64,000 nucleotides of DNA, from the NCBI RefSeq assembly GCF_044324875.1, contig NZ_CP172185.1; one strand, 5' to 3'. Numbering within the stretch: the first letter of the stretch is position 1; the number at the start of each line of letters is the position of its first letter. The translations under genes and the position numbers were made by a program. The stretch is from Escherichia coli. Lineage in GTDB: Bacteria > Pseudomonadota > Gammaproteobacteria > Enterobacterales > Enterobacteriaceae. This document shows, in pieces, positions 679 to 32,693 of the stretch. The notes under the pieces are model-generated. The model saw only the letters and a list, made by a program, of their open reading frames with translations. It had not been told where the DNA came from and did not search any database.

Positions 679-682
679 TTCC

Positions 683-1426
683 ATGACAGAGACAGAATCA
701 GCGATTCTGGCGCACGCCCGGCGATGTGCGCCAGCGGAGTCGTGCGGCTTCGTGGTGAGAACGCCGGAGGGGGAAAGATATTTTCCCTGCGTGAATATCT
801 CCGGTGAGCCGGAGGATTATTTCCGGATGGCTCCGGAGGACTGGCTGCGGGCAGAAATGCAGGGTGAGATTGTGGCGCTGGTCCACAGCCACCCCGGTGG
901 TCTGCCCTGGCTGAGTGAGGCCGACCGGCGGCTGCAGGTGCAGAGTGATTTGCCGTGGTGGCTGGTTTGCCGGGGGACGATTCATAAGTTCCGCTGTGTG
1001 CCGCATCTCACCGGGCGGCGTTTTGAGCACGGGGTGACGGACTGTTACACGCTGTTCCGCGATGCCTATCATCTTGCAGGTATCGATTTGCCGGATTTTT
1101 ACCGACATGATGACTGGTGGAAATCAGGTCAGAATCTCTATCTTGACAATATGGAGGCGACTGGTTTTTACCGTGTCGCACTGACAGAGGCGCAGCCCGG
1201 CGACGTGCTGCTGTGCTGTTTTGGTTCATCGGTGCCGAATCATGCCGCCATTTACTGCGGCGACGGCGGGCTGCTGCACCATATTCCTGAACAACTGAGC
1301 AAACGAGAGAGGTATACCGACAAATGGCAGCGACGCACACACTCCCTCTGGCGTCACCGGGCATGGCACGCATCTGCCTTTACGGGGATTTGCAACGATT
1401 TGGCCGCCGCATCGACCTTCGTGTGA
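683..1426 (+). CDS. Phage tail assembly protein K (NlpC/P60 plus JAB/MPN metalloprotease-like)
   Basis: MTETESAILAHARRCAPAESCGFVV...; HSHP JAMM-like motif (EIVALVHSHPGGLPWLSEADRRL); position between L and I. Confidence 0.85.
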   Translation: MTETESAILAHARRCAPAESCGFVVRTPEGERYFPCVNISGEPEDYFRMAPEDWLRAEMQGEIVALVHSHPGGLPWLSEADRRLQVQSDLPWWLVCRGTIHKFRCVPHLTGRRFEHGVTDCYTLFRDAYHLAGIDLPDFYRHDDWWKSGQNLYLDNMEATGFYRVALTEAQPGDVLLCCFGSSVPNHAAIYCGDGGLLHHIPEQLSKRERYTDKWQRRTHSLWRHRAWHASAFTGICNDLAAASTFV

Positions 1427-1971
1427 AAACGGGAGCCGAAGCCATCCGGGCGCTGGCCACGCAGCTCCCTGCGTTTCGTCAGAAACTGAGCGACGGCTGG
1501 TATCAGGTGCGTATTGCCGGGCGTGATACAGGCGAAAACGAATTATCAGCCCGTCTTAATGAACCGCTGGCAAATGGTGCCGTGATCCACATCGTGCCGC
1601 GTCTGGCGGGAGCCAAACGTGGTGGTGTGTTTCAGGCAGTGCTGGGCGCGGCGCTGATTGCGGTGGCATGGTGGAACCCTGCAGGCTGGCTGGGGGCTGC
1701 GGCTTTATCGGGCATGTATGCGGCAGGGGCCAGTATGGTGCTCGGTGGTGTGGCGCAGATGCTGGCACCGAAAGCCAGAATGCCCGGAGTATCAGCCACG
1801 GATAACGGCAAACAGAACACCTATTTCTCCTCACTGGATAACATGGTTGCCCAGGGGAATGCTCTGCCCGTTCTGTACGGTGAAATGCGCGTGGGGTCAC
1901 GGGTAATTTCGCAGGAGATCAGCACAGCGGATGAGGGGGATGGCGTCCGGGTTGTGGTGATTGGTCGCTGA
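1324..1971 (+). CDS. Phage tail assembly protein I (lambda gpI-like)
   Basis: MAATHTLPLASPGMARICLYGDLQRFGRRIDLRVKTGAEAIRALATQLPAFRQKLSDGWYQVRIAGRD... matches lambda I; overlaps the K 3' end as in lambda. Confidence 0.85.
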   Translation: MAATHTLPLASPGMARICLYGDLQRFGRRIDLRVKTGAEAIRALATQLPAFRQKLSDGWYQVRIAGRDTGENELSARLNEPLANGAVIHIVPRLAGAKRGGVFQAVLGAALIAVAWWNPAGWLGAAALSGMYAAGASMVLGGVAQMLAPKARMPGVSATDNGKQNTYFSSLDNMVAQGNALPVLYGEMRVGSRVISQEISTADEGDGVRVVVIGR

Positions 1972-3659
1972 TGAAAAACGTTTTATGTGAAACCGCCTCC
2001 GGGCGGTTTTGTCGTTTATGGAGCGTGAGGAATGGGTAAAGGCAGCAGTAAGGGGCATACCCCGCGCGAAGCGAAGGACAACCTGAAGTCCACGCAGTTG
2101 CTGAGTGTGATCGATGTCATCAGCGAAGGGCCGATACAAGGACCGGTGGATGGATTAAAAAGCGTGCTGCTGAACGGTACGCCGGTGCTGGACAGTGAGG
2201 GGAATACCAATATATCCGGCGTCACGGTGGTATTCCGGGCCGGTGAGCAGGAGCAGACGCCGCCGGAGGGATTTGAATCCTCCGGCTCCGAGACGGTGCT
2301 GGGTACGGAAGTGAAGTACGACACGCCGATTACCCGGACCATCACGTCGGCAAACATCGACCGTCTGCGCCTGACCTTCGGTGTGCAGGCACTGGTGGAA
2401 ACCACCTCAAAGGGGGACCGGAATCCGTCGGAAGTCCGCCTGCTGGTTCAGATACAGCGTAACGGTCGCTGGTTAACGGAAAAAGACATCACCATTAAGG
2501 GCAAAACCACCTCGCAGTATCTGGCCTCGGTGGTGGTGGGTAACCTGCCGCCGCGCCCGTTCAGTATCCGGATGCGCAGGATGACGCCGGACAGCACCAC
2601 AGACCAGCTGCAGAACAAAACGCTCTGGTCGTCATACACCGAAATCATCGATGTGAAACAGTGCTACCCGAACACGGCACTGGTCGGTGTGCAGGTGGAT
2701 TCGGAGCAGTTCGGCAGCCAGCAGGTGAGCCGTAATTATCATCTTCGCGGGCGCATTCTGCAGGTGCCGTCGAACTATAACCCGCAGACGCGGCAATACA
2801 GCGGTATCTGGGACGGAACGTTTAAACCGGCATACAGCAACAACCCGGCCTGGTGTCTGTGGGATATGCTGACCCATCCGCGCTACGGCATGGGGAAACG
2901 TGTTGGCGCAGCGGATGTGGATAAATGGGCGCTGTATGTCATCGGCCAGTACTGCGACCAGTCAGTGCCGGACGGCTCTGGTGGCACGGAGCCGCGCATC
3001 ACCTGTAATGCCTGGCTGACCACACAGCGTAAGGCGTGGGATGTGCTCAGTGATTTCTGCTCGGCGATGCGCTGTATGCCGGTATGGAACGGGCAGACGC
3101 TGACGTTCGTGCAGGACCGACCGTCGGATAAGGTGTGGACCTATAACCGCAGTAATGTGGTGATGCCGGATGATGGCGCGCCGTTCCGCTACAGCTTCAG
3201 CGCCCTGAAGGACCGCCATAATGCCGTTGAGGTGAACTGGAGTGACCCGGATAACGGCCAGGAGACGGCGACAGAGCTTGTGGAGGACACGCAGGCCATT
3301 GCCCGTTACGGTCGTAACGTCACGAAGATGGATGCCTTTGGCTGTACCAGCCGGGGGCAGGCACACCGCGCCGGGCTGTGGCTGATTAAAACAGAACTGC
3401 TGGAGACGCAGACCGTGGATTTCAGCGTGGGTGCTGAAGGGCTTCGCCATGTACCGGTGCAAAATGGCATCTGAATCGATCGCAGTTTGGCATTCGAATC
3501 GATCATGATTTGGCATCCATCTCCGATCACAGTTTGGCATCACAATCGATCACGATTTGGCATGCTTCCGATCATTGATTGGCATCCTGCCAGTCACTCC
3601 GGGAATTAACTCTTTTCACCACAGTCTCCATTGCCGTGTTTAAACCAGTGGAGACGTCA

Positions 3660-5225
3660 ATGTCCAGAAAGAGAAAATCCAGGAGCACTATGGAAACCTG
3701 TTTTAAGATCCTTCAGCTCAAGTTCGACAAGAAGCTGACTAACCGTTGTATCGGACTGACGTTACACATCAGCGCCTCAACCGTTTTTGAGGTTCTTGCC
3801 CGCTTCAAAGCCTCTTCTCTGTCATGGCCATTACCTGCTGATATATCCCATGACACGCTGGAGAAACTCATTTTTCCGCCCAAAGACACCTTTGCATCAG
3901 AGCTTGTAATGCCTGACATGTTGTACTTCGATACGGAAATGAGAAAACCAGGTGTGACGCGGCAACTGTTGTGGATGGAATACAAGGCACAGGCGGGTAA
4001 CAAAGCGATGGGATACTCGCACTTCTGCCGTTGCTACCGGGAGTGGAAAAAAACGCGACGTCTCTCCATGCGCCAGGAGCATCGTGCCGGCGAAAAGCTT
4101 TTTATCGACTTCTGTGGTCCTACGGTTCCTGTTATTAATCCGGACACCGGTGAGATACGCCGCGTGGCAATCTTCGTGGCCGTAATGGGGGCGTCCAACT
4201 ATACCTACGTTGAAGCGTGCGAAGGTCAGGACATGATGTCATGGTTAAATGCCCACAGCCGTTGCCTGACCTTCCTGGGCGGCGTACCGAAGCTGCTCAT
4301 CCCCGATAACCTCAGAAGCGCAGTGAAAAAGGCCGATCGATATGAGCCTGTCATCAACGACAGTTATCAGGCACTGGCTGAGCACTATGGCACGGTTATC
4401 ATCCCGGCCCGACCACGCAAACCTAAAGATAAACCAAAAGCAGAAAACGGCGTCCTCATCGTTGAACGATGGCTTCTTGCCCGCATCCGTAATGAAACCT
4501 TCCACACGCTCAGGGCGCTGAATGCGCGCCTTAGGGAGTTACTGACAGACATGAATAACCGGCCAATGAAGGGGTACGGCAATCAAACCCGTGCAGAACG
4601 CTTCCGCATACTGGATGCGCCAGCACTCTCTCCGCTGCCTCTGGCACCTTATGAATACACGGAATACAAAGCTGTGAAGGTTGGCCCTGACTACCACGTT
4701 GAATATGCCCGTCACTGGTACTCCGTTCCACACGAACTGGTCGGTCAGCGTCTGTCACTGAAGGCGGGGCAGTCGGTGGTACAGCTCTGGCACAAGGGGC
4801 AGTGTGTGGCGCAACATCCGCGCAGCACACATGAATATAAACACACAACCAATCCGCTTCACATGCCAGAGCGCCACCGGCAGCACGGGACATGGACACC
4901 GGAACGCCTGATCGAGCAGGGAAAACGTACGGGCCCGTCCACAGGCCGGGTGGTTGAATCCATGCTGAAGGCAAAACCCCATCCGGAACTGGCTTATCGT
5001 GCAGTTCTGGGGCTGCTGGCACTTCAGAAAAAATACGGCCCGGAACGGCTGGAAAAGGCCTGTTACGTTGCCCTGCACTATAACGCCCCTGACAGACGCT
5101 TTATCGACAATCTGCTGCGTCACCATCGGGAGAACCTGGAGCTTCCATTATCCCGCCAGGGCGAACAACATCCGGCATATGCTTCAGAGCATGAAAACCT
5201 GCGTGGTCCGGGCTACTACCACTGA
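3660..5225 (+). CDS. istA: IS21-family transposase IstA
   Basis: About 520 aa with N-terminal HTH region (...LSWPLPADISHDTLEKL...) and an IstA-like central/C-terminal region; start chosen at ATG 3660, upstream alternative start possible. Confidence 0.75.
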   Translation: MSRKRKSRSTMETCFKILQLKFDKKLTNRCIGLTLHISASTVFEVLARFKASSLSWPLPADISHDTLEKLIFPPKDTFASELVMPDMLYFDTEMRKPGVTRQLLWMEYKAQAGNKAMGYSHFCRCYREWKKTRRLSMRQEHRAGEKLFIDFCGPTVPVINPDTGEIRRVAIFVAVMGASNYTYVEACEGQDMMSWLNAHSRCLTFLGGVPKLLIPDNLRSAVKKADRYEPVINDSYQALAEHYGTVIIPARPRKPKDKPKAENGVLIVERWLLARIRNETFHTLRALNARLRELLTDMNNRPMKGYGNQTRAERFRILDAPALSPLPLAPYEYTEYKAVKVGPDYHVEYARHWYSVPHELVGQRLSLKAGQSVVQLWHKGQCVAQHPRSTHEYKHTTNPLHMPERHRQHGTWTPERLIEQGKRTGPSTGRVVESMLKAKPHPELAYRAVLGLLALQKKYGPERLEKACYVALHYNAPDRRFIDNLLRHHRENLELPLSRQGEQHPAYASEHENLRGPGYYH

Positions 5226-5241
5226 CAGAAGGAACAACAGT

Positions 5242-5997
5242 ATGAGTGATAACCTGTTAAACAAACTGACCCAACTGAAACTCCCGGCGATGGCCGGGAG
5301 CCTGATACGGCAGCGGGAAACGCCTCAGACCTACGACGAACTGTCGTTCGAGGAAAGGCTGACGCTGCTGGTTGATGACGAGCTTCTGAGCAGGGAAAAC
5401 AGCCGTGTGGCACGGTTGAGAAAAAATGCCGGCCTGAAATACCAGGCAACACCGGAAGGGCTGCGCTATCCGGCCTCAAGAGGTCTGCGGGCTGAACAGA
5501 TGAGAGAACTGCTGAACGGCCACTACATAACCCACAGGAAAAACCTGCTGATAACCGGTCCGACAGGATGTGGCAAGAGCTGGATAGCCAATGCGCTGGG
5601 CGAACAGGCATGTCGACAGAAACACAGCGTCCGGTACTGTAGAACCGGGCGATTACTGGAACAACTGGCTCAGGGACGTGTTGATGGCAGCTGGCTGAAA
5701 TATCTGAAACAGTTGCAAAAAATACAGGTTCTAATCCTGGACGATCTGGGGCTGGAACAGTTAAGTAACGCCCAGTGTAATGACCTTCTGGAGCTCATAG
5801 AGGATCGTTACGGACAAAGCAGCACGATAGTGGTAAGCCAGTTCCCGGTAGATAAATGGCATGGTCTGATGGAGAACCCAACAACAGCAGATGCCATCCT
5901 GGACAGACTGGTACATAACTCACACCGAGTGGTCCTTCAGGGAGAGTCACTGAGGAAAAATCCCCCGGTAGTGGAAAGCAGCGAAAAAACGCGTTAA
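5242..5997 (+). CDS. istB: IS21-family helper ATPase IstB
   Basis: 251 aa; Walker A GPTGCGKSWIANALG; Walker B LILDDLG; typical IstB size and position after istA. Confidence 0.85.
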   Translation: MSDNLLNKLTQLKLPAMAGSLIRQRETPQTYDELSFEERLTLLVDDELLSRENSRVARLRKNAGLKYQATPEGLRYPASRGLRAEQMRELLNGHYITHRKNLLITGPTGCGKSWIANALGEQACRQKHSVRYCRTGRLLEQLAQGRVDGSWLKYLKQLQKIQVLILDDLGLEQLSNAQCNDLLELIEDRYGQSSTIVVSQFPVDKWHGLMENPTTADAILDRLVHNSHRVVLQGESLRKNPPVVESSEKTR

Positions 5998-8218
5998 AAA
6001 GCGGTAGAAAAAGTTAAGTTCCCGGTTGATCGAATGGATGCGAATCGCTGATCGGACTTCGATGCCAATCCGTGATCGAATAGAGCGGAATACGCATACC
6101 GGGCGATGTCATTGAAATCTGTGATGATGACTATGCCGGTATCAGCACCGGTGGTCGTGTGCTGGCGGTGAACAGCCAGACCCGGACGCTGACGCTCGAC
6201 CGTGAAATCACGCTGCCATCCTCCGGTACCACGCTGATAAGCCTGGTTGACGGAAGTGGCAATCCGGTCAGCGTGGAGGTTCAGTCCGTCACCGACGGCG
6301 TGAAGGTAAAAGTGAGCCGGGTTCCTGACGGCGTTGCCGAGTACAGCGTGTGGGGGCTGAAGCTGCCGACGCTGCGCCAGCGCCTGTTCCGCTGCGTGAG
6401 TATCCGTGAGAACGACGACGGCACGTATGCCATCACTGCCGTGCAGCATGTACCGGAAAAAGAGGGCATCGTGGATAACGGGGCACACTTTGACGGTGAC
6501 CAGAGCGGCACGGTGAATGGTGTCACGCCGCCAGCAGTGCAGCACCTGACTGTCGAAGTCACCGCAGACAGCGGGGAGTATCAGGTACTGGCCCGCTGGG
6601 ACACGCCGAAGGTGGTGAAAGGCGTGAGTTTCATGCTTCGCCTGACCGTGGCAGCGGATGACGGCAGTGAGCGGCTGGTCAGCACGGCCCGGACGACGGA
6701 AACCACATACCGCTTCAGGCAGCTGGCGCCGGGGAACTACAGGCTGACAGTCCGGGCAGTAAATGCCCGGGGGCAGCAGGGAGACCCGGCGTCGGTATCG
6801 TTCCGGATTGCCGCACCGGCAGCGCCGTCGCGGATTGAGCTGACGCCGGGCTATTTTCAGATAACCGCCACGCCGCATCTTGCCGTTTATGATCCGACGG
6901 TGCAGTTTGAGTTCTGGTTCTCGGAAAAGCGGATTACCGATATCAGGCAGGTTGAAACCACAGCCCGTTATCTTGGTACCGGAAGTCAGTGGCTTGTCTC
7001 CGGCCAGAATATTAAACCTGGCCATGATTATTACTTTTATATCCGCAGTGTTAACACTGTCGGTAAATCGGCATTCGTGGAGGCAGTCGGTCGGGCGAGT
7101 AATGATCCTGCCGGTTACCTTAATTTTTTCAGGGGGGCGATAAATAAAACGCATCTGGGACGGGAGATCAATGAACGCATTGATGCCTCTGCACGGCGCA
7201 CTGAAGTTGAGCAACTGGAGAATGCGATTAACCGCGAAATGACGCAGCTGGAGAATGCGATTAACCGCGAAATGACGCAGCTGGAGAAAGATGTGAGGCA
7301 GCGTGCGGAGCGTGATATCGCAGAGGTGACGAAAAAAATCACGGCGTCTGAAAACAGCATAACGGAACTGGTGGCGAAAAAGAGCGGTGAACAGTCGCTG
7401 GCCATTGCGAAAGTCGACAGGAAAGTTGACAGCGTGAGCAGTGAAATCCGGCAGACAGTAAGCAGGAGCACGGAGGAGAACAGCCGACAGATAGCGCAGG
7501 TCAGGCAGTATGTTGATGATAAAAGTGCGCAAATAAGTACTGTTGTGGCGAAAAAGAGCGGTGAACAGTCAATGGCCATTGCGGAAGTTGACAGAAAAGT
7601 TGACAGGATGGGCAGCGAAATCCGGCAGACAGTAAGCAGGAGCACGGAGGAGAACAGCCGACAGATAGCGCAGATCAGACAGTATGTTGATGATAAGGGA
7701 AGTCAGATCAAACAGAGCACGGATAAAAAACTGGGATCCTGGAATGCCAGCATTGAGCAGATACAGAAAGTTCAGGAGGACACGCGCCGGAACCTGAACA
7801 GCATGTGGGCTGTGAAGCTGCAGCAGACACGGGATGGACGTCTCTATATTGCAGGTATTGGTGCCGGAATCGAAAATACGTCTGACGGAATTCAGAGTCA
7901 GATCCTGATGCAGGCAGATCGTATTGCGATGATTAACCCGGAAAATGGCAATACAACACCTTTGTTTGTGGCTCAGGGTGATCAGCTGTTCATGAATGAT
8001 GTTTTCATGAAAAAACTGACCGTGGATTTTGCCAGAGTGACGGGAGATATCCGGTCAGATAATTTTCATTCCGGTAGTCCGGGGTGGCGTTTATCAAGAA
8101 ACGGCAGCCTTGAAATTAACTCAGGAAGGCCCGGCGCAGGCCGCCTGTTTTTCAATGGCGAGCGAATCGACGTATATGACGATAACAATGTGTTAAGAGT
8201 ACGACTGGGGAGACTGTA

Positions 8219-8479
8219 ATGTTCGGAGTCCGGGTATGGCGCAAAGGGCGCCTTGTGACACATGAAATAAACCCAACAGGGGTGCTGGATGTGATCACTG
8301 AAGGGACGGGGCAGCGTTCTTATACTCCTTTGCAGGGCTGGCGTCTGGAAGTCTGTTCACCGGCCATTCTGATTAACGGTCAGGGAAGTCATACCAGTGC
8401 CAGTGTATCCGGCTGGACAGTGCACTATGCCAACACAAGCTGGCTAAGACCCGTGCTGGTCATGATAAGGGGGATCTGA
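8219..8479 (+). CDS. Hypothetical phage protein, translationally coupled to J (TAATG overlap)
   Basis: 86-aa ORF starting on the J stop codon; no motif I can recognise. Confidence 0.4.
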   Translation: MFGVRVWRKGRLVTHEINPTGVLDVITEGTGQRSYTPLQGWRLEVCSPAILINGQGSHTSASVSGWTVHYANTSWLRPVLVMIRGI

Positions 8480-9141
8480 TGTTTGCACTTAAATTAACTG
8501 ATGAGCGGGGGAGAGAATGGATATCACCTGTTGCGCCGCCACTGAACCTTGTGCGCCGTTTTCATTTCACACTGAGTGCGCGTGATGCGGTGATGCAGTT
8601 TATCGACACCGGGGTGCCGACGAATTATCGTTGCGTGATTTTTATTAAACAGATAAGCGGTAATCAGTCCTTCCATGGTGAAATGGTTCAGCTTAACGGT
8701 ACCTGGCAGTATGACATTTTCAGCGCTGGTACAGGGCAGGAGCCGGGCATGGAACAGGACAGCACATATGTTGTTTATGTTTTTGCCAACATGGTGAATG
8801 TATGGCCGCAATGGGGAATACAGTTGTGCGACAGTCATGGCAGGGTGGTCTGGAACACGGAAATGCTGCCACTGGAAGTAAAAATGACGCGAATATGGGA
8901 AAAGGATGTACCGATCAGTGTGGGACATGATGTGGCCGTAATGCCGGGGTGTACCCAGTGGACGACAGTTCAGGAAGGGGAGAGTTATTACTGGTATACC
9001 GCCAGTTTTAATGCCAGAAACTCACAGTTATGGCGTCAGTCAACTTTTGCTGAAGATAACGTAGCGGCGCCCAATGATAATTCAGGTGTTGTTAATAACC
9101 TCTGTTATTACATAAATGCAGAAATTTATGATGCGTACTGA
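8479..9141 (+). CDS. Hypothetical phage protein (tail-associated or moron), coupled by TGATG overlap
   Basis: 220-aa ORF, Trp/Tyr-rich, no recognisable catalytic motif; sits between J and the side tail fiber. Confidence 0.45.
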   Translation: MFALKLTDERGREWISPVAPPLNLVRRFHFTLSARDAVMQFIDTGVPTNYRCVIFIKQISGNQSFHGEMVQLNGTWQYDIFSAGTGQEPGMEQDSTYVVYVFANMVNVWPQWGIQLCDSHGRVVWNTEMLPLEVKMTRIWEKDVPISVGHDVAVMPGCTQWTTVQEGESYYWYTASFNARNSQLWRQSTFAEDNVAAPNDNSGVVNNLCYYINAEIYDAY

Positions 9142-9162
9142 TAGTTATGTTGAGGGCATGTA

Positions 9163-9408
9163 ATGAAAATAATCGTCTGCACTTTTTTGCTGTTTCTTGT
9201 ATCAGGTTGCGCGGGGTACCGTTCCGTTACGGAGAGAGTCCGGTGCACCGGTGTGCTGAGTCCCGGGGTTTTACAGCGAGCTTATACGGTAGATCTTACA
9301 GGGAAAATAGAAACGAAAAGCGGCACTGTGTATAAAGTATCAGCTCCGAGATTTTATGGTCAGTGGGTGAGTGAAGATATGTTTACGAAAGTTTCGTGCG
9401 TGAAGTAA
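9163..9408 (+). CDS. Small phage lipoprotein, candidate Cor-like superinfection-exclusion protein
   Basis: 81 aa; signal peptide with lipobox MKIIVCTFLLFLVSGC; lies where lom/cor-type genes sit in lambdoid phages. Function is inferred. Confidence 0.5.
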   Translation: MKIIVCTFLLFLVSGCAGYRSVTERVRCTGVLSPGVLQRAYTVDLTGKIETKSGTVYKVSAPRFYGQWVSEDMFTKVSCVK

Positions 9409-9483
9409 TCATAAAAACACCCGATTGTAAATGAATGACGACGCCCGCAATTTTGCGGGATTATTTTTATTTGTGGAGCGAGT

Positions 9484-10812
9484 ATGGCGGCTGTAAAAAT
9501 TTCAGGCGTGCTCAGGGACGGAACCGGAAAACCGGTACCGGGATGCATTATTGAGCTGAAAGCGAAGAGAACCAGCGAGACAGTCATCGCCACGACAGTG
9601 GCTTATGGCATGCCGGAAGAGACGGGGAGTTACAGTATGGATGTGGAGCCAGGAATATACAGGGTGACACTCAATACAGAAGGTTACCGTCCTTCGTATG
9701 TGGGAGATATCGTGGTCAGGGAGGATTCTTCACCGGGAACACTGAATAAATTTCTGATGGAGATGGAAGATGCTCCTTATTATCCGAAGGCGTTGTCAGA
9801 GCTGGAGGCTGTGGTGCAGTCCATACTGCACAGAGCAGAGTCCGCGGCATCTGAGGCGGAGGAAGCCCGGAAGCGAGCAGCATCTGCCCGGGGACCACGA
9901 GGAGAGAAAGGGGATACCGGCGCTCGTGGTGAAAGAGGCATTACCGGGCCACAGGGGCCAAAAGGTGAAACAGGAGCACGTGGCCCGGCAGGACCACAGG
10001 GACCAAAAGGTGAAACAGGTGAACGCGGTCCGGCAGGTCCACAGGGACCAAAGGGCGATACAGGTGAACGCGGCCCGGCAGGTCCACAGGGACCAAAAGG
10101 TGAAACAGGTGCACGTGGTCCGGAAGGTCCACAGGGAGCAAAAGGTGAAACAGGTGAACGCGGCCCGGCAGGTCCACAGGGAGCAAAGGGCGAAACAGGT
10201 GCACGTGGTCCGGAAGGCCCTCAGGGTCTGAAGGGAGAAAAGGGTGAGCGAGGAGAAAAAGGCCCTAAGGGGGATAAAGGAGATCCGGGAGGTCCACAGG
10301 GACCAAAAGGTGAAACAGGTGAACGTGGCCCGGCAGGTCCACAGGGACCAAAAGGTGAAACAGGTGAACGTGGCCCGGCAGGTCCACAGGGACCAAAGGG
10401 CGATACAGGTGAACGCGGTCCGGCAGGTCCACAGGGGCCAAGAGGGTATACAGGTGAACGCGGGCCGACAGGTCTACAGGGGCCAAGAGGGTATACAGGT
10501 GAACGCGGGCCGGCAGGTCCACAGGGGCCAAGAGGAGAAGCGGGGCGGCCAGCGAGCGTCGGAAGTGTTTATTCCGTGGGGTCTTATGTTCTGGGGATCA
10601 TAGAACGAAATCATGAGATAACAAATACCCGTCAAATACCCGGGTATCGTATCAGACAGGCCGTTATTGTGTCGTCGTCATCGGATAAACTTACAGATAT
10701 CCGCTTTTTATTTGGCAATCCTATGCTTGGTACATGGATGTTATGCACAACTAACATGGCGGTGAATAATATCAGTGGGACGATTTGGGGCCTGTTTCAG
10801 AGAATACTGTGA
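9484..10812 (+). CDS. Prophage side tail fiber protein with collagen-like Gly-X-Y repeat region
   Basis: N-terminus [29 protein letters not shown]... resembles the Stf N-terminal domain of E. coli prophages; about 220 aa of GxY triplets ([19 protein letters not shown]...). Confidence 0.8.
9886..10548 (+). repeat. Tandem, roughly 45-bp coding repeats (collagen-like Gly-X-Y) inside the tail fiber gene
   Basis: Repeated [15 protein letters not shown] units at nucleotide level; the ORFs in other frames and on the opposite strand over this stretch are repeat artefacts. Confidence 0.8.
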
Positions 10813-11002
10813 CAGGGGGAGAAATGAATGAAGGTCGATAAAATCACGTCACCAGTGTGGGCTGACAGGGGTCATACGACCATAAACTGTATAGTGAAGT
10901 TTTCAGACGCGGAAACAGAATGTGTATTTACAGCAAGTGCGGATGATCCGTAACCGGCTCATTTAAACCGTCTGGTCTGTTTCCTCCGGCTCTACAAAAA
11001 TA

Positions 11003-11680
11003 ATGTCCATCATTTTTAATGGACACTATCGTATGAAACACCGGACCTGGATCACTGAAGCTTTACGTCTTCACTTTGAAGAACATTTACCCCGGGTTGT
11101 GGCCGGGCGTCGCCTGGGTGTACCAAAATCAACAGTTTGTAGTATGTTCGTGCGCTTTCGGAGAGCTGGCCTTTCGTGGCCTTTGCCCGCAGGCATGTCG
11201 GAGCAGGAACTTGATGCCTGCCTTTACGGACAATTTTCCACGGTACCAGTCGTACGTCCTGAAAGCACCGTTATATCCGAAGCCCCCGTGGTAAAAAAAC
11301 GTCCCCGGCGGCCCAACTTCCCTTATGAGTTTAAAATCGCCTTAGTGGAGCAGTCACTGCAGCCCGGAGCCTGTGTGGCGCAGATCGCCCGGGAAAACGG
11401 AATCAACGATAACCTGCTCTTCAACTGGCGCCATCAATACCGGAAAGGTGGCCTGCTGCCTTCCGGAAAAAATATGCCGGCACTGCTTCCCGTGACGTTA
11501 ACGCCGGAGCCGGATAATAAAATCCCGGCCCCCGCACAGGAACCAGAGCAGATAAATACACCGTCCGACAGTCTGTGTTGTGAGCTGGTTCTGCCGGCCG
11601 GAACTCTCAGGCTTAAAGGTAAACTGACGCCGGCGTTATTACAGACACTTATCCGCGAAATAAAAGGGAGCAGCCACTGA
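11003..11680 (+). CDS. tnpA: IS66-family accessory protein (orfA/TnpA) with N-terminal HTH extension
   Basis: C-terminal part ...PNFPYEFKIALVEQSLQPGACVAQIARENGINDNLLFNWRHQYRKG is IS66 orfA-like; N-terminal part carries an LSWPLPA HTH-like motif. Start codon uncertain. Confidence 0.7.
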   Translation: MSIIFNGHYRMKHRTWITEALRLHFEEHLPRVVAGRRLGVPKSTVCSMFVRFRRAGLSWPLPAGMSEQELDACLYGQFSTVPVVRPESTVISEAPVVKKRPRRPNFPYEFKIALVEQSLQPGACVAQIARENGINDNLLFNWRHQYRKGGLLPSGKNMPALLPVTLTPEPDNKIPAPAQEPEQINTPSDSLCCELVLPAGTLRLKGKLTPALLQTLIREIKGSSH

Positions 11681-12027
11681 TGATATCTCTCCCTGCAGGT
11701 TCGCGTATCTGGCTGGTTGCAGGTATCACCGATATGCGAAATGGCTTTAACGGCCTGGCATCAAAAGTTCAGAACGTCCTGAAGGATGACCCGTTCTCCG
11801 GACACCTGTTCATCTTCCGCGGACGCCGGGGTGACCAGATAAAAGTGTTGTGGGCTGACAGTGACGGACTGTGCCTCTTCACCAAACGCCTGGAGCGGGG
11901 CCGCTTCGTCTGGCCAGTCACCCGTGACGGCAAGGTGCACCTTACTCCGGCTCAGTTATCCATGCTTCTTGAAGGTATCAACTGGAAGCACCCGAAACGA
12001 ACGGAACGCGCTGGAATCCGCATATAA
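11680..12027 (+). CDS. tnpB: IS66-family TnpB (Orf2)
   Basis: 115 aa MISLPAGSRIWLVAGITDMRNGFNGLASKVQNVL...; overlapping start with orfA stop. Confidence 0.85.
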   Translation: MISLPAGSRIWLVAGITDMRNGFNGLASKVQNVLKDDPFSGHLFIFRGRRGDQIKVLWADSDGLCLFTKRLERGRFVWPVTRDGKVHLTPAQLSMLLEGINWKHPKRTERAGIRI

Positions 12028-12046
12028 CCCGTTGTAAAGTGAGGAT

Positions 12047-13618
12047 ATGGACACCTCACTTGCTCATGAGAACGCCCGCCTGCGGGCACTGTTGCAGACG
12101 CAACAGGACACCATCCGCCAGATGGCTGAATACAACCGCCTGCTCTCACAGCGGGTGGCGGCTTATGCTTCCGAAATCAACCGGCTGAAGGCGCTGGTTG
12201 CGAAACTGCAACGTATGCAGTTCGGTAAAAGCTCAGAAAAACTTCGTGCAAAAACCGAACGGCAGATACAGGAAGCACAGGAGCGAATCAGCGCACTTCA
12301 GGAAGAAATGGCGGAAACGCTGGGTGAGCAATATGACCCGGTACTGCCATCCGCCCTGCGCCAGTCTTCAGCCCGTAAACCGTTACCGGCCTCACTTCCC
12401 CGTGAAACCCGGGTTATCCGGCCGGAAGAGGAATGCTGTCCTGCCTGTGGTGGTGAACTCAGTTCTCTGGGATGTGATGTGTCAGAGCAACTGGAGCTTA
12501 TCAGCAGCGCCTTTAAGGTTATCGAAACACAACGTCCGAAACAGGCCTGTTGCCGGTGCGACCATATCGTGCAGGCACCAGTACCTTCAAAACCCATTGC
12601 ACGCAGTTATGCCGGAGCGGGGCTTCTGGCCCATGTTGTCACCGGGAAATATGCAGACCATCTGCCGTTATACCGCCAGTCAGAAATATACCGTCGTCAG
12701 GGAGTGGAGCTGAGCCGTGCCACACTGGGGCGCTGGACAGGTGCTGTTGCTGAACTGCTGGAGCCGCTGTATGACGTCCTGCGCCAGTATGTGCTGATGC
12801 CCGGTAAAGTCCATGCTGATGATATCCCCGTCCCGGTCCAGGAGCCGGGCAGCGGTAAAACCCGGACAGCCCGGCTGTGGGTCTACGTCCGTGATGACCG
12901 TAACGCCGGTTCACAGATGCCCCCGGCGGTCTGGTTCGCGTACAGTCCGGACCGGAAAGGTATCCATCCACAAAATCACCTGGCCGGTTACAGCGGTGTG
13001 CTTCAGGCCGATGCTTACGGTGGTTACCGGGCGTTATACGAATCCGGCAGAATAACGGAAGCCGCGTGTATGGCTCATGCCCGGAGAAAAATCCACGATG
13101 TGCATGCAAGAGCGCCCACCTACATCACCACGGAAGCCCTGCAGCGTATCGGTGAACTGTATGCCATCGAGGCAGAGGTCCGGGGCTGTTCAGCAGAACA
13201 GCGTCTGGCGGCAAGAAAAGCCAGAGCCGCGCCACTGATGCAGTCACTGTATGACTGGATACAGCAACAGATGAAAACACTGTCGCGTCACTCAGATACG
13301 GCAAAAGCGTTCGCATACCTGCTGAAACAGTGGGATGCACTGAACGTGTACTGCAGTAATGGCTGGGTGGAAATCGACAACAACATCGCAGAGAACGCCT
13401 TACGGGGAGTGGCCGTAGGCCGGAAAAACTGGATGTTCGCGGGTTCCGACAGCGGTGGTGAACATGCGGCGGTGTTGTACTCGCTGATCGGCACATGCCG
13501 TCTGAACAATGTGGAGCCAGAAAAGTGGCTGCGTTACGTCATTGAACATATCCAGGACTGGCCGGCAAACCGGGTACGCGATCTGTTGCCCTGGAAAGTT
13601 GATCTGAGCTCTCAGTAA
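12047..13618 (+). CDS. tnpC: IS66-family transposase TnpC
   Basis: 523 aa; N-terminal coiled coil, Cys cluster CCPACGGEL...CCRCDH, DDE-type catalytic region. Confidence 0.85.
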
Positions 13619-14475
13619 ATATCAATACGGTTCTGACGAGTCGCTTACGATGATCCTGAGTCTTACGGTCGTGAAATATTTGAAGCCTGCATAAGAGGTG
13701 ATGCAGGGCCGGTAGGTGAGTACCGGGCAAATGATGATATGGCTGTGGAAGAAGCACGCAGGATGAAAAACGCGGAGATAAATGCCTGGCGTGATGCGAT
13801 GGAGGCGTCAGGGTATGTTTTTGAGCACAGAGGACGGAAATGGGATTATGGAAAGGAAACCATGACACGTCTTGGAATGTCGGCATCAGCGGCCAGAGGC
13901 GGTGTGTTGCCGGAAGGATTTTTCTGGACGGACGCAGAGAATAATGATGTACCGATGACGGCAGATGAACTGATATCCCTGAGTGATGCTGCTGGTAAAG
14001 CGATGTTCAGGAAAGGCCTTGAAATACATATAAGGCAAAGGGAGATGAAAAAGGCAATAGCAGAACTGAGTGACAGTGAAACCATTCTGGCGTACAGGGT
14101 TGGATGGTGAAACTGATAAAAAAACCCCTCTGAAAATTCTGTCAGAGGGGGGCAAGGATCTATATTTATTATGCGGTAATGCTTTCACTCCGGTAATTAA
14201 TTTCAGTGATTAACTGCTTTCGATCAATAAAGGAATTGCAAAAAGGTGATCTTGTTCACGACATTGTGGATGATAATATGCCTGATGTCTGAATCCGGAA
14301 ACAGTGATCTGGCGGGTTTCATGTGAAGTTGACGGATAAAAAATCCGCACGACCAGACAGACGTGCGGTTTACGAAATTCGTAACAAGAGGCTTTTCTAG
14401 GGATCACGTGGTGCGTGCCACGTGAAATTTTTGTAGCGCAAAATGTGTAATGTGTAAATACAAGGAAGGAAAAAG

Positions 14476-14805
14476 TTAAATCGGTGGAAGTCCATACCGG
14501 GAACGTGCACGGTTACATGCTTCGTTTTCAATACCATTTTCACCAGACATGGCAAATTCCCGGCACGTTGATGAACGGTTTTCGTAGATGGTACAGCTCG
14601 CTTCTTTACCTGGTGTTCCTGCAAGGGCAATACATCTGGGGTTTTTCTGGTTTGTACCGATCATGCATCGGTGCAAAGGCGATACTTGTTCAGTAAGTCT
14701 GGCTGGAATGGTGCCGCCAGCATCGTCGGCTTCGGCCCAGTAAAAAGAGACGCGGAAAAATGCACAACAGGCACCACACGTTATGCATGGATTTGGATTG
14801 CTCAT
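14476..14805 (-). CDS. Small Cys-cluster protein (CxxCxxCC, YkgJ/UPF0153-like putative zinc or iron chelating domain) at the prophage edge
   Basis: 109 aa [28 protein letters not shown]...; motif C-x2-C-x2-C-C plus further conserved Cys. Confidence 0.5.
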
Positions 14806-19097: not shown

Positions 19098-19769
19098 ATG
19101 AAGATTTTACTTATTGAAGATAATCAAAGGACCCAGGAGTGGGTAACGCAGGGGCTTTCCGAAGCGGGTTATGTCATTGATGCCGTTTCTGATGGCAGAG
19201 ATGGGCTTTATCTTGCGCTGAAGGATGATTATGCATTGATCATTCTGGATATTATGCTTCCGGGTATGGATGGCTGGCAGATCTTACAAACGTTAAGAAC
19301 AGCAAAGCAAACCCCTGTTATTTGCCTTACTGCAAGGGATTCTGTCGATGACAGAGTCAGAGGGCTGGACAGTGGAGCAAATGATTATCTGGTAAAACCT
19401 TTTTCATTTTCTGAGTTGCTGGCAAGGGTTCGGGCACAATTAAGGCAACATCATGCTTTGAATTCAACATTAGAAATCAGTGGCTTAAGAATGGACTCTG
19501 TTAGTCAAAGTGTGAGCAGGGACAATATCAGTATTACACTGACGCGCAAGGAGTTTCAGTTACTTTGGCTACTGGCCTCCAGAGCTGGCGAAATTATACC
19601 CAGAACGGTTATTGCGAGTGAAATTTGGGGAATCAACTTTGATAGTGATACCAATACGGTGGACGTCGCCATTCGCAGGCTCCGCGCAAAAGTTGATGAT
19701 CCTTTTCCTGAAAAGCTAATCGCCACAATCCGGGGGATGGGCTATTCATTCGTAGCGGTAAAAAAATAA
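19098..19769 (+). CDS. hprR: OmpR-family response regulator HprR (YedW)
   Basis: 223 aa MKILLIEDNQRT...; receiver domain plus winged-helix; start set at MKILLIED rather than the upstream alternative start of the ORF track. Confidence 0.9.
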   Translation: MKILLIEDNQRTQEWVTQGLSEAGYVIDAVSDGRDGLYLALKDDYALIILDIMLPGMDGWQILQTLRTAKQTPVICLTARDSVDDRVRGLDSGANDYLVKPFSFSELLARVRAQLRQHHALNSTLEISGLRMDSVSQSVSRDNISITLTRKEFQLLWLLASRAGEIIPRTVIASEIWGINFDSDTNTVDVAIRRLRAKVDDPFPEKLIATIRGMGYSFVAVKK

Positions 19770-21127
19770 TGAAAAGATTATCTATAACCGTCCGTTTAAC
19801 CTTGCTTTTTATATTGGTGCTGTCTGTTGCTGGCGCTGGAATTGTCTGGACTCTCTATAATGGCCTGGCAAGTGAGTTGAAATGGCGCGATGATACAACA
19901 CTCATTAACCGGACAGCGCAGATCAAGCAGTTGTTAATTGATGGGGTAAATCCAGATACGTTACCTGTGTACTTTAACCGGATGATGGATGTTAGTCAGG
20001 ATATCTTGATCATTCATGGTGATAGCATCAACAAAATTGTTAACCGGACGAATGTCAGTGATGACATGTTAAATAACATACCTGCTACTGAGACAATCAG
20101 CGCAGCTGGCATTTACAGAAGCATTATTAATGATACAGAGATAGATGCTTTACGAATTAATATTGATGAAGTTTCGCCATCATTAACGGTTACTGTGGCT
20201 AAATTGGCTTCAGCCAGACATAACATGCTTGAACAGTATAAAATTAATAGCATTATAATTTGCATTGTCGCCATTATACTTTGTTCAGTATTAAGTCCGC
20301 TGTTAATCAGAACGGGGTTACGAGAGATCAAAAAGTTGAGTGGTGTAACGGAAGCGCTGAATTATAACGATAACCGGGAGCCTGTTGAGGTTAGCGCATT
20401 ACCGAGAGAACTAAAACCTCTTGGGCAGGCGTTGAATAAAATGCACCAAGCCTTAGTCAAAGATTTTGAACGCCTAAGTCAATTTGCTGACGATCTCGCT
20501 CATGAACTTAGAACGCCAATTAATGCATTACTGGGTCAGAATCAGGTTACGCTCAGTCAAACCAGAAGTATCGCTGAATATCAAAAAACAATTGCCGGAA
20601 ACATTGAAGAGCTGGAAAATATTTCGCGGTTAACAGAGAACATACTGTTTCTTGCCAGGGCAGATAAAAATAATGTTTTGGTGAAACTGGACTCGCTTTC
20701 TCTCAATAAGGAAGTCGAAAATTTGTTGGACTATCTTGAATACCTTTCAGACGAGAAAGAGATTTGCTTTAAGGTCGAGTGCAATCAGCAAATCTTTGCG
20801 GATAAAATTTTACTACAACGAATGTTATCGAATCTTATTGTTAACGCTATTCGATATTCGCCAGAAAAATCGCGCATTCTTATAACCAGTTTTCTTGATA
20901 CCAACGGCTCTCTTAATATTGATATCGCCAGCCCTGGTACGAAAATTAATGAGCATGAAAAACTCTTCCGTAGATTTTGGCGCGGAGATAATTCGCGTCA
21001 TTCCGTAGGTCAGGGACTTGGTCTTTCTTTAGTCAAAGCGATTGCCGAATTGCATGGGGGAAGTGCTACGTATCACTATCTCAATAAGCTTAATGTGTTC
21101 CGGATTACGTTACCGCAAAGAAATTAA
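19769..21127 (+). CDS. hprS: Sensor histidine kinase HprS (YedV)
   Basis: 452 aa; two transmembrane segments, H-box LAHELRTPINAL, ATPase domain; coupled to hprR. Confidence 0.9.
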   Translation: MKRLSITVRLTLLFILVLSVAGAGIVWTLYNGLASELKWRDDTTLINRTAQIKQLLIDGVNPDTLPVYFNRMMDVSQDILIIHGDSINKIVNRTNVSDDMLNNIPATETISAAGIYRSIINDTEIDALRINIDEVSPSLTVTVAKLASARHNMLEQYKINSIIICIVAIILCSVLSPLLIRTGLREIKKLSGVTEALNYNDNREPVEVSALPRELKPLGQALNKMHQALVKDFERLSQFADDLAHELRTPINALLGQNQVTLSQTRSIAEYQKTIAGNIEELENISRLTENILFLARADKNNVLVKLDSLSLNKEVENLLDYLEYLSDEKEICFKVECNQQIFADKILLQRMLSNLIVNAIRYSPEKSRILITSFLDTNGSLNIDIASPGTKINEHEKLFRRFWRGDNSRHSVGQGLGLSLVKAIAELHGGSATYHYLNKLNVFRITLPQRN

Positions 21128-21233: not shown

Positions 21234-22085
21234 TTAACTCGAGTAAGCGGCCAGCATTTCCTGCGCCGCCAGTTTACCCAACGCATTCGCTGCGAAAGGA
21301 CTGTCGCCGGTGAGAACTTTACGGTCCTTATGTACTCGCCCGGTGATGTCGTCATTAATAATGTTCATGCCCATTTTCTTCAGCTCTTCGCCGAAGTACC
21401 AGGTGAGATGACCCGGCATATAGCCTATCTCTGGCGTTTGTTTGTCTGCGGCGTCTGGGAATGCGCAAATGGAATAACCATTCAGTGGGTTATCGCCGTG
21501 GCGAAGTGCCAGAAAAGCCGCCGGACCGTGGCAAAGGGATATAACAAAACGGTCATTTTTGATTGCCCACTGTAAAGCGGCAGCCACGTCCTGGCTTTCT
21601 GGTAAACCAATAAGTGCGCCATGACCACCAGGAACAAAGATTGCTGCATATTCGCTGTCAGCGTTGAGGCTGGCGACAACATCCGCGAGTTTATTCGGAT
21701 TGCGGAACAACGATTTATGCTGCTCAAAGAATGGCATTACTTTTTCATCTTTGTGTGGCATAGCCCAGTATTCAAACTTGGTCATCAGACCGGAAATGGT
21801 CGCCACTTCGAATTCGAAACCTGCAGCATGGAGATGATACAACGGCAGCAACGTTTCAATCGGATGGTTACCGGTCGAAAACAGTTTGCCGTTATCGGTC
21901 GGCAAATAACGTTCGTCCGCGGCGATCACCAGAATTTTATGTTTACCACGATAAGGTTTTGGGTAGTCCACGCCATCAAGATCAGAGACAGGACTAGTAT
22001 ATTGGCTAAGCGAATATTCTGAAGGGAAGAATGCATTATCTTCAGCAATATCGACCTGCGGATTTTTACTTGTTTGAACAGTCAT
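21234..22085 (-). CDS. hchA: Glyoxalase III / protein deglycase HchA (Hsp31)
   Basis: 283 aa, DJ-1/PfpI fold; matches HchA. Confidence 0.95.
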   Translation of the reverse strand: MTVQTSKNPQVDIAEDNAFFPSEYSLSQYTSPVSDLDGVDYPKPYRGKHKILVIAADERYLPTDNGKLFSTGNHPIETLLPLYHLHAAGFEFEVATISGLMTKFEYWAMPHKDEKVMPFFEQHKSLFRNPNKLADVVASLNADSEYAAIFVPGGHGALIGLPESQDVAAALQWAIKNDRFVISLCHGPAAFLALRHGDNPLNGYSICAFPDAADKQTPEIGYMPGHLTWYFGEELKKMGMNIINDDITGRVHKDRKVLTGDSPFAANALGKLAAQEMLAAYSS

Positions 22086-22676
22086 AGTGTATTCCTTATT
22101 GTTGCTTAGTTAGGGTAGTCACTATATTTGCGACTGAGCTGGTCGCTATTTTTAACCAGGCTGGAAAATTGAGTCAATATATCGAAAGCGGTAGTCGGCG
22201 GGTGTAAGTATGTAATGATGATGCTGCACTGGTGTTGAATATTATTCACGCCAAATTTTCCTTATTGAGCAACGTCGTCGCAAGTGGCCTCAATGATTTT
22301 AGACCATTATCAGAGGTCCGGGGCGGCAGGGAGAGATTTAGTGCTGTGGAATATTGTGGTGCTGATGAATATTTATATCCCGGATTGGTAGAGAAAAAGC
22401 TTTTTCCATGCACTTTTTTTGCAAATATTTCTGTATGGGAGGCGGTTTTGTTGCAGATTAATTCATAAAGAAATGCATTTGGGTGTTGGCTGGAAGAGTC
22501 GCGGGTAGATGTTATTGTGCCAGCAGGGGCAGGGTAAGGTACTGTATCGATATGCTTTGGCAATTGCATGTGCCGCAGAGGGAGATGAAATGCCAATAAA
22601 AAAGCCTGAGTTCGATGAGGGACGAACTCAGGCTAGTGTTAACTTTTACAGTAACACGCCGCGGCGCGTTGGCTGA

Positions 22677-23870
22677 TTAGAACTGGTAGACTAAGCCCAC
22701 AGCAACGATATCATCGGTAGCGATGCCGTTTGCTTTGTAGAAGTCGTCGTCGTTGTCCAGCAGGTTGATTTTGTAATCAACGTAGGTGGACATGTTTTTG
22801 TTGAAGTAGTAAGTCGCACCAATATCAACGTATTTAACCAGATCTTTATTGGTGTAACGTGGGTCGCCGTTGCCGTCATGAGCCCAACCACCTAAATCCT
22901 TACCTTTAGATTGCAGGTAAGCGATGGACGGGCGTAGGCCGAAGTCGAACTGATACTGAGCAACAACTTCAAAGTTTTGGGTTTTGTTCGCAATACCACC
23001 TCTGTCAATGTCGTTATTGTCTTTTCCGCTGCCATATGCAGTCATATTACGTGTTTCTGCATACATTGCCGCTAAATAGACATTATTCGCATCATATTTA
23101 GCACCGACTGTCCATGCTTCAGCTGTTTCACCACCAGCATATTTATTCGAGCGTTGCTCACCTAAACCAGTAGCACGTTGGTTATCAGTACGGTCAGAGT
23201 TTGAATATGCAGCCCCGAGGCTTAACCCGAAGTCAAAGTCATAGGAAGTGGACATACCGAAACCGTCACCATTTTCTTTAGACAGTTTACGATTATTACC
23301 ATTACCAGAACCTTCTTGATCCCAAAGCCCACCCGATCCTTCATTATTACCCTGATATTGCAGAGCAAAGTTCAGGCCATCGACCTGACCAAAGAAGCCA
23401 TTGTTACGGTAGGTTGCAACACCATTAGCACGACCGTTCAGGAAGTTGTCGGCACCAGCATAGGTATCGCCACCAAATTCTGGCAGCATATCGGTCCATG
23501 CTTCGATGTCATATACGACACCGTAGTTACGACCATAGTCGAAAGTACCATTCTGACCAAAGCCTAAACCTGCAAATGCCAGACGCGTTGCGGTATTACC
23601 TTTGTCGCTTTCAGGACCGTTTGCGCCAATGTTAAATTCCCACTGACCATAACCAGTGAATTGGTCAGCGATCTGAGTTTCACCTTTGAAACCGATACGG
23701 GCATATGACATGTCGCCATCGCTGCCAGCATCATCAGAGAAGTAGTGCAGGCCCGCTACTTTTCCGTACAAATCCAGTTTATTACCATCTTTATTATAGA
23801 CTTCAGCCGCATTTGCTGCGCCAGCAACTAATAACGCCGGGACCAGCATTGCCAGAACTTTTCTTTTCAT
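22677..23870 (-). CDS. yedS: OmpC/OmpF-family general porin YedS, apparently intact
   Basis: Signal peptide [37 protein letters not shown] porin N-terminus, C-terminal ...VGLVYQF; uninterrupted frame. Confidence 0.85.
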
Positions 23871-24498
23871 TATGTATTCCCTTGTGATTATAATCTTCAT
23901 GAATATATCAATAAGTGCCGTTATCCAAAAAAAAGCACATTTGGATACTATTCTATGAAGTTCATTTTATTTTAAAGATTACATGTAACAAATATATTTA
24001 AAAGATTTCAAAATGTTTCTAATCTATTTAATATAATTCAGAATTATGAATTCTAAATATAAATATTCATGAAAATTATAAATGTATATCAATATGTTAT
24101 GAGTTGAGCGGAAACATAGGGGGTATCAATGATTGTTGCGCCAAACGGCTGGTGTGATCACGCGCACATTAATGAAGGCATAAAAAAAGCCGGCATCATG
24201 CCGGCCCAAAAAAAATAAACAAGACGATAAAAGGCTAATAACGGAAGCATCATGACACAGAATAATAAAAAGGTATAATTGTAATCAGTGCTAATATATT
24301 GATTGAATGAATTAATAAAGCCGATATCAAAGATAAATAAAATCGCTCAAAACGATTTTTCCTGTATTCACTGCCGTTGCGCAAAAATTATCTATTTGTT
24401 CAAAAAATGATTGAGTCTTGACTGGCTCATCCAATGTGGAAAAATGTGACTTTTATCACATAATAGTACTAAGTCTGAATTTTCCGGGTTATCTCAAA

Positions 24499-24801
24499 AT
24501 GGAATACGGTTCGACAAAGATGGAAGAGAGACTCTCTCGCAGCCCTGGCGGCAAATTGGCTTTGTGGGCTTTCTATACATGGTGTGGCTATTTCGTCTGG
24601 GCAATGGCGCGTTACATCTGGGTGATGAGCCGGATCCCTGATGCCCCGGTGTCGGGATTTGAAAGCGATTTAGGCTCTACCGCGGGAAAGTGGTTAGGGG
24701 CACTGGTTGGCTTTTTATTTATGGCTCTGGTCGGGGCATTGTTAGGCAGCATTGCCTGGTACACCCGACCTCGTCCCGCACGTAGCAGACGCTATGAATA
24801 A
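24499..24801 (+). CDS. yedR: Inner membrane protein YedR
   Basis: MEYGSTKMEERLSRSPGGKLALWAFYTWCGYFVW...; two predicted transmembrane helices; start uncertain. Confidence 0.7.
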   Translation: MEYGSTKMEERLSRSPGGKLALWAFYTWCGYFVWAMARYIWVMSRIPDAPVSGFESDLGSTAGKWLGALVGFLFMALVGALLGSIAWYTRPRPARSRRYE

Positions 24802-32605: not shown

Positions 32606-32693
32606 AACACATCAGATTTCCTGGTGTAACGAATTTTTTAAGTGCTTCTTGCTTAAGCAAGTTTCATCCCGACCCCCTCAGGGTCGGGATTTT
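32606..32693 (+). ncRNA. dsrA: Small regulatory RNA DsrA
   Basis: AACACATCAGATTTCCTGGTGTAACGAATTTTTTAAGTGCTTCTTGCTTAAGCAAGTTTCATCCCGACCCCCTCAGGGTCGGGATTT; matches DsrA, with the terminal stem-loop and U tract. Confidence 0.9.

Follow-up and report, generated by a model that had tools for sequence, protein, structure and literature searches.

Escherichia coli K-12 carries yedS as a pseudogene (b4496), which raises the question of whether the corresponding gene of another E. coli strain is intact and, if it is, whether that strain might gain from it an additional general porin. We examined this question in a stretch of 64,000 nucleotides from contig NZ_CP172185.1 (assembly GCF_044324875.1), referred to here as the window. 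The genes around the locus lie in the order hprS-hchA-yedS-rseX-drpB-yedJ-dcm-vsr, and the same arrangement surrounds the K-12 pseudogene. The landmarks in the window are as follows.

19769-21127: hprS
21234-22085: hchA
22246-22596, minus strand: candidate ORF of 116 aa between hchA and yedS, called 'hypothetical protein' in some RefSeq genomes
24182-24271, minus strand: rseX small RNA, directly upstream of yedS and in the same orientation (Rfam RF01401, 95.1 bits, E=1e-11)
24520-24801: drpB

The small RNA gene rseX, for which the terminator scan placed a terminator at 24207-24187, marks the yedS locus, and K-12 is arranged alike. The 116-aa ORF at 22246-22596 had no Pfam match and is probably spurious rather than a gene.

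The reading frame between hchA and rseX opens at the ATG at 23870 and continues unbroken on the minus strand through 397 codons to the TAA at 22677-22679, as found both in the ORF list and in the raw sequence. The elements that accompany it are the following.

22677-23870, minus strand: yedS coding sequence, a class A, OmpC/OmpK37-like general-diffusion porin (ORF and sequence, Pfam, NCBIfam)
23808-23870, minus strand: signal peptide, codons 1-21, with cleavage before AEVYNKDG (sequence reading)
23877-23883, minus strand: Shine-Dalgarno sequence AAGGGAA, 6 nt 5' of the ATG (sequence reading)
about 22595-22634, minus strand: intrinsic terminator, a 12-bp stem AGCCTGAGTTCG...CGAACTCAGGCT followed by a T-run (terminator scan)

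The signal peptide, read from the sequence and aligned with the OmpC and OmpF precursors, ends in A-N-A and leaves AEVYNKDG as the mature N-terminus; it is close to the signal peptide of K-12 OmpC and is identical in all 14 of the intact alleles sampled. The leader that contains the Shine-Dalgarno sequence is unchanged across the allele classes described below, and the C-terminus, VGLVYQF, ends in the Phe that acts as a β-barrel assembly signal and is kept in every sampled allele. An alternative start at the ATG at 23900, which would give an ORF of 407 aa, was rejected: it has no Shine-Dalgarno sequence, and the translated homologues (14 of 14) begin MKRKVLAM.

The product of this frame matched the Pfam family Porin_1 (PF00267) at E=5.5e-143 over residues 27-397, covering model positions 1-337 of 337, and scored 546.8 bits with the NCBIfam 'porin OmpC' subfamily model NF007841, the cut-off of which is 484. 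The closest solved structure by sequence was that of Klebsiella OmpK37 (6v78; E=6.8e-147 over the full mature length), followed by OmpK36 and OmpC and then by OmpF and PhoE. Because the Porin_1, NCBIfam and OmpK37 matches are so strong, a chance ORF is ruled out. The first-pass annotation had described a complete OmpC/OmpF-family porin with a signal peptide and a C-terminal Phe; this description is borne out by the ORF, the sequence, Pfam and NCBIfam, the coordinates 22677-23870 proved exact, and the strand, which had been left unstated, is the minus strand.

For comparison with K-12 we used yedS b4496 (formerly b1964-b1966; 1193 nt, from NC_000913.3) in a global alignment, which gave an overall nucleotide identity of 91.8%. 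Two lesions were found in the K-12 gene. The first is a CAG to TAG change that creates an amber codon at position 162 (nt 484), and the second is a deletion of 1 nt at about nt 665; both are absent from the window. The statement in the first-pass annotation that K-12 yedS is non-functional was therefore sound, on the strength of these two lesions, and the alignment that it had proposed as a check showed the window gene to be without an internal stop or frameshift. The identity is unevenly distributed, being 97.5% in nt 1-525 and 97.7% in nt 891-1194, with a divergent segment between them.

22981-23345, minus strand: hypervariable middle third, nt 526-890, codons ~176-297, corresponding to putative loops L4, L5 and L6 (K-12 alignment; loops placed with the low-confidence AlphaFold2 model)

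In this segment, the two genes are 78% identical with 17 gap positions, and the same middle third contains most of the extra length of YedS relative to OmpC.

Homopolymer errors can either make or erase a frameshift, and one might ask whether the apparent integrity of the gene is an assembly or sequencing artefact that masks a true lesion. Nothing specific to this sequence points in that direction, and at least 54 independent complete genomes carry the 1,194-nt gene ungapped with one mismatch, which is a synonymous substitution where it was checked. We regard an artefact as extremely improbable. The matching complete E. coli genomes, in which the yedS DNA is 99.9% identical and ungapped, come from pigs, poultry, people and water; the gene of strain CFSAN018748, for example, has a single difference from that of the window, a synonymous CTA/CTG change at L312. 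The predicted protein is identical to RefSeq WP_000824405.1 ('porin OmpC'). We are highly confident that 22677-23870 is an intact allele of yedS, a chromosomal minor-porin gene located between hchA and rseX-drpB.

Several features elsewhere in the window were recorded as well. The tail end of a degraded lambdoid prophage adjoins zinT (window 1-14800); the gene for its tail tip, gpJ, is broken up into several ORFs, a gene for a tail fibre containing collagen repeats occupies 9484-10812, and an IS66-family element is present at ~11003-13618. The genome closest to the window in the yedS region has cdtABC at the place of the prophage, and the cdtABC stretch had no match in the window. Just after fliE, the window has a segment of ~3 kb (45287-48294) that CFSAN018748 lacks and that includes ORFs of 420 and 291 aa. 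The DsrA small RNA gene (32606-32692, plus strand; Rfam, 102.5 bits) lies at its normal place near yedP and rcsA.

By setting the intact gene against its K-12 counterpart, the first-pass annotation had implied that an intact yedS is unusual. We inspected 25 loci taken from an evenly spaced listing of 5,431 matching records, and an intact porin gene was found in 18 of them. Rows 1-12 of the listing, which represent the K-12-type allele class, were evenly divided between intact (6) and disrupted (6) copies; the disrupted copies were those of 2 K-12 derivatives, 2 with another frameshift, 1 with an IS3 insertion and 1 with an IS5 insertion. The odd-numbered rows from 13 to 35 were intact throughout (12/12), row 36 was disrupted by IS2, and rows 37-40 gave matches to paralogues only, the locus being missing or unrecognisable. 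Weighting by row leads to an estimate that an intact porin gene occupies the yedS locus in ~72% of complete genomes. The protein database likewise holds hundreds of full-length E. coli/Shigella entries of 395-405 aa, one of which is found on at least 1000 contigs.

The distribution of the amber mutation was determined with a 41-mer centred on the K-12 amber codon, a length that forces any megablast seed across the mutation. This 41-mer matched 358 of 5,426 complete genomes, and nearly all of the amber-allele genomes among the matches listed are named K-12 laboratory strains (DH5alpha, DH10B, JM109, TG1, J53 and EC600 are examples) or K-12-sized genomes; the corresponding CAG 41-mer from the window matched 419 genomes. 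These results contradict the implied unusualness, and intact yedS is the majority state in natural E. coli. Because the amber allele is, among the matches listed, nearly limited to K-12 types and the lesions of other strains differ from it, the K-12 pseudogene reflects a loss specific to its lineage, and several such losses have occurred independently. The repeated independent inactivation of the gene, by IS3, by IS5, by IS2 and by two kinds of frameshift, shows that yedS is dispensable. The call of an intact yedS in this strain is correct, but both the gene and its intact state are already known, and the intact state is annotated and common.

The disrupted copies themselves deserve a brief description. 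In strain SCU-105, an IS3 insertion interrupts a yedS allele that is 99.9% identical to that of the window; other independent inactivations involve IS5/ISKpn26 and IS2, and the cattle strain 109 carries a frameshift at a position different from that of K-12. All of the disrupted copies for which the class was determined belong to class A, the K-12-type class, the IS2 copy (L020) having been left unclassed.

A second issue raised by the genome records is the identity of the gene, which RefSeq/PGAP names 'ompC: porin OmpC' in every close genome. (The K-12-type yedS pseudogene of K-12 derivatives receives the same name.) Homologues in the protein database are called 'porin OmpC', 'outer membrane protein yedS', 'outer membrane protein S1' or 'outer membrane protein N'. 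Taken at face value, the RefSeq label, together with a score above the NCBIfam 'porin OmpC' cut-off, would make the window gene a second copy of ompC and not a separate porin. The NCBIfam model, however, is a subfamily model, with which the true K-12 OmpC scores 751.7 bits, and the 66% identity between YedS and K-12 OmpC is about the distance that separates OmpC from OmpF (65%); YedS and OmpF are 62% identical. Moreover, the nearest solved structure is OmpK37 and not OmpC. An OmpC orthologue is expected to lie beside micF and rcsDB and to be nearly identical to OmpC, whereas the window gene is the divergent protein just described and resides at the hchA/rseX locus, not at micF/rcsD, the very locus that is called yedS in K-12. 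We consider it very improbable that the gene is a copy of ompC. A consequence of the RefSeq label is that many genomes seem to have two ompC genes, and this double naming could mislead automated porin-loss checks in resistance surveillance.

Having assigned the gene to yedS, we examined whether its product retains the residues that line the pore of the classical porins. The key element is the constriction loop.

23460-23501, minus strand: core of constriction loop L3, codons 124-137, with the motif PEFGGD (alignment with K-12 OmpF/OmpC)

In the alignment, the acidic pair D127 and E131 of YedS corresponds to D113 and E117 of OmpF, and the basic ladder K37, R58, R96 and R147 corresponds to K16, R42, R82 and R132 of OmpF. 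All six eyelet residues and the PEFGGD motif are thus conserved. YedS is 30 residues longer than OmpC, the difference being made up by insertions at 237-243, 282-290 and 328-336 (L7) and by a few single residues. An AlphaFold2 model built from a 15-sequence alignment contained 16 main strands at low confidence (mean pLDDT 59), and its low-confidence stretches coincide with the expected loops L1-L8. Strand and loop boundaries were taken from this low-confidence model with DSSP and are for approximate use only; they would place the insertions, together with the variable middle third, in the surface loops L4-L7. Because of the full-length homology to the crystal structures of OmpK37, OmpK36 and OmpC, a 16-stranded β-barrel fold is very likely.

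The best-supported mechanism, judged from the sequence, is that YedS would act as a trimeric, non-specific diffusion channel, trimerisation and conductance being inferred. The precursor would be exported by Sec and would adopt the 16-stranded, trimeric architecture of the OmpC/OmpF general-diffusion porins, with a channel narrowed by L3 (PEFGGD) opposite the basic ladder (K16, R37, R75 and R126 in mature numbering). The predicted channel would therefore combine an unchanged constriction zone with an outer face that is enlarged and variable owing to the long loops L4-L7.

The variability of the outer face extends to the population of genes found at this locus. The intact genes sampled there encode at least four deeply divergent classes of mature porin.

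class A: 392-404 aa; the window gene and K-12 yedS before its decay
class B: 387 aa; 73% identical to the window protein
class C: 357-371 aa; ~60% identical to the window protein
class D: 352 aa; ~60% identical to the window protein

For classes A and B, the highest scores were with the OmpC subfamily model and with OmpK37; for classes C and D, they were with OmpF, OmpK35 and PhoE. We compared window positions 22690-23800 with loci L008, L010, L012, L015 and L017. The 420 nt upstream of the gene and the 21 codons of the signal peptide are 95-100% identical in all of the classes; in steps of 100 nt, identity falls from 95-100% to 40-75% exactly across the part that encodes the mature protein, and it recovers in the last ~20 nt of the gene. 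This pattern looks like cassette-type replacement or a long-term balancing polymorphism of a surface-exposed protein. One could envision that the locus holds a long-maintained 'porin cassette' polymorphism under strong diversifying or balancing selection and hence that the porin is expressed in nature; phages, colicins and antibody might be the selecting agents. We put this forward tentatively, as a possibility that we would not yet favour. If it is true, the window allele is one variant of a porin-cassette system. We found no description of the cassette pattern in those E. coli papers mentioning yedS that we consulted, and pan-genome studies may describe it under other names.

Whether an intact reading frame contributes a porin to the cell depends on its expression, and we therefore turned to the upstream region.

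23900-24100, no strand assigned: extremely AT-rich promoter/regulatory region, 18.5% GC (composition profile)
24153-24168, no strand assigned: CRP-like, near-consensus palindrome TGTGAtcacgcGCACA, between the rseX terminator and yedS (sequence reading)

The AT-rich region holds two weak pairs of σ70-like hexamers on the minus strand (9/12 matches), and in the promoter scan upstream of yedS these hexamers were not above the shuffled background. Very AT-rich DNA is the kind bound by H-NS. In Salmonella, OmpS1 is activated by LeuO/OmpR. The Salmonella ompS1 gene is described in PMC4264507 as quiescent, repressed by H-NS and StpA and derepressed by LeuO, and PMC8313858 refers to rseX, the neighbour of yedS, as H-NS-repressed in E. 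coli. The CRP-like palindrome is located ~285 nt upstream of the yedS ATG; for its K-12 equivalent (2033766), an in vitro CRP footprint assigned to yedS is given in PMC12871828. In a K-12 array study (PMC2731931), 'yedS (ompS1)' is named among the porin transcripts that were down 2.5-fold on σE induction. We also noted a conserved AT-rich inverted repeat, TATCCAAA-TGTGC-T(7-9)GGATA, at window positions 23920-23947 on the minus strand (~-77 to -50 relative to the ATG); it is situated in the presumed 5' leader of yedS, and the length of its T-run differs among strains.

Post-transcriptional control was considered with RNAduplex. YedS is said, in the work of Warner et al. of 2013, to be regulated by MicF in a MarA-dependent manner. 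K-12 MicF formed no ompF-like duplex with the yedS leader between -100 and +30 (-8.7 kcal/mol, z +1.2), whereas the positive control, K-12 MicF with the ompF leader, gave -27.4 kcal/mol (z -5.4); RseX showed no significant duplex with the yedS leader. Because an ompF-like site was not found in the leader, no obvious duplex accounts for the MicF control that has been published. Any action of MicF on yedS would, as far as duplex prediction can tell, take a route other than an ompF-like site in the -100 to +30 region.

The extreme AT-richness of the promoter region and its resemblance to those of H-NS-silenced porin genes such as Salmonella ompS1 lead us to infer that yedS is probably poorly expressed under standard conditions, and we would expect a functional gene with weak expression in the laboratory. 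Its contribution would then be seen mainly in cells that have lost OmpC and OmpF or in which silencing has been lifted. A more extreme proposal is that in this strain yedS, despite its intact ORF, is functionally dead or permanently silent and adds nothing to permeability. The locus has been lost repeatedly in other lineages, 6 of the 12 sampled copies of the K-12-type class are disrupted, the IS3 insertion of SCU-105 lies in the same allele as that of the window, and the upstream DNA is AT-rich and H-NS-target-like, all of which would agree with a silent gene. Such a gene, however, would not readily account for the conservation of all of the pore-lining and folding-signal residues or for the fact that the coding sequence departs from those of the most similar genomes by a synonymous change alone. 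In addition, alleles with mature proteins only 60% identical still agree at 95-99% in the regulatory region and leader, and conservation of the regulatory region across divergent alleles argues for continued selection on expression. A phenotype of functional YedS has also been published (Warner 2013, as related in citing papers). A permanently silent gene is in our view unlikely, and a functional gene of weak expression is the reading that we prefer.

There is a published precedent for a bearing of intact yedS on permeability to β-lactams. The clinical isolate of the 2013 study by Warner et al. (Antimicrob Agents Chemother 57:1935) reportedly had neither OmpC nor OmpF and expressed a functional yedS. 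Citing passages in PMC4048246 and PMC11267920 credit Warner et al. 2013 with linking an intact functional yedS to carbapenem susceptibility. By analogy with what was published for that other isolate, YedS would pass small hydrophilic solutes, carbapenems included, across the outer membrane, and it is plausible that the present strain expresses YedS as an additional porin. Where a cell has lost both OmpC and OmpF, carbapenems could plausibly still enter by way of an intact yedS, and loss or repression of that gene would be a plausible further step in resistance. Already on record are the yedS gene, its intactness outside K-12 and the possibility that it lets carbapenems in. As K-12 is the exception at yedS, gene lists based on K-12 under-count the porins of natural isolates.

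The place of the window gene among known systems can now be stated. It is closest to the gene encoding WP_000824405.1, which is borne by E. coli CFSAN018748 and by swine ETEC/O139:H1 genomes, for example; the protein is the same as that of the window, and the DNA of the locus shows one synonymous difference within the gene and two further differences in 1.4 kb of flanking sequence. It resembles K-12 yedS in its flanking genes, its signal peptide and its upstream region (98.8% identical) but is without the amber codon 162 and the -1 frameshift, and the third of the gene that encodes L4-L6 is only 78% identical. YedS shares with OmpC and OmpF the family, the type of signal peptide, the pore-lining residues and the C-terminal signal, and differs from them in sequence (66% and 62% identity) and in locus. 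With OmpK37 of Klebsiella pneumoniae, grouped here with the OmpN/OmpS-type minor porins, it shares the L3 motif and the barrel, whereas L5, L6 and L7 are longer in YedS by 8, 9 and 7 residues, and OmpK37 comes from another species and another locus. Finally, yedS is like Salmonella ompS1 in that it encodes a large minor porin and is preceded by very AT-rich DNA, which would fit H-NS silencing; some databases and papers give it the label 'ompS1' or 'outer membrane protein S1', and it is from these labels that a putative orthology with ompS1 is drawn.
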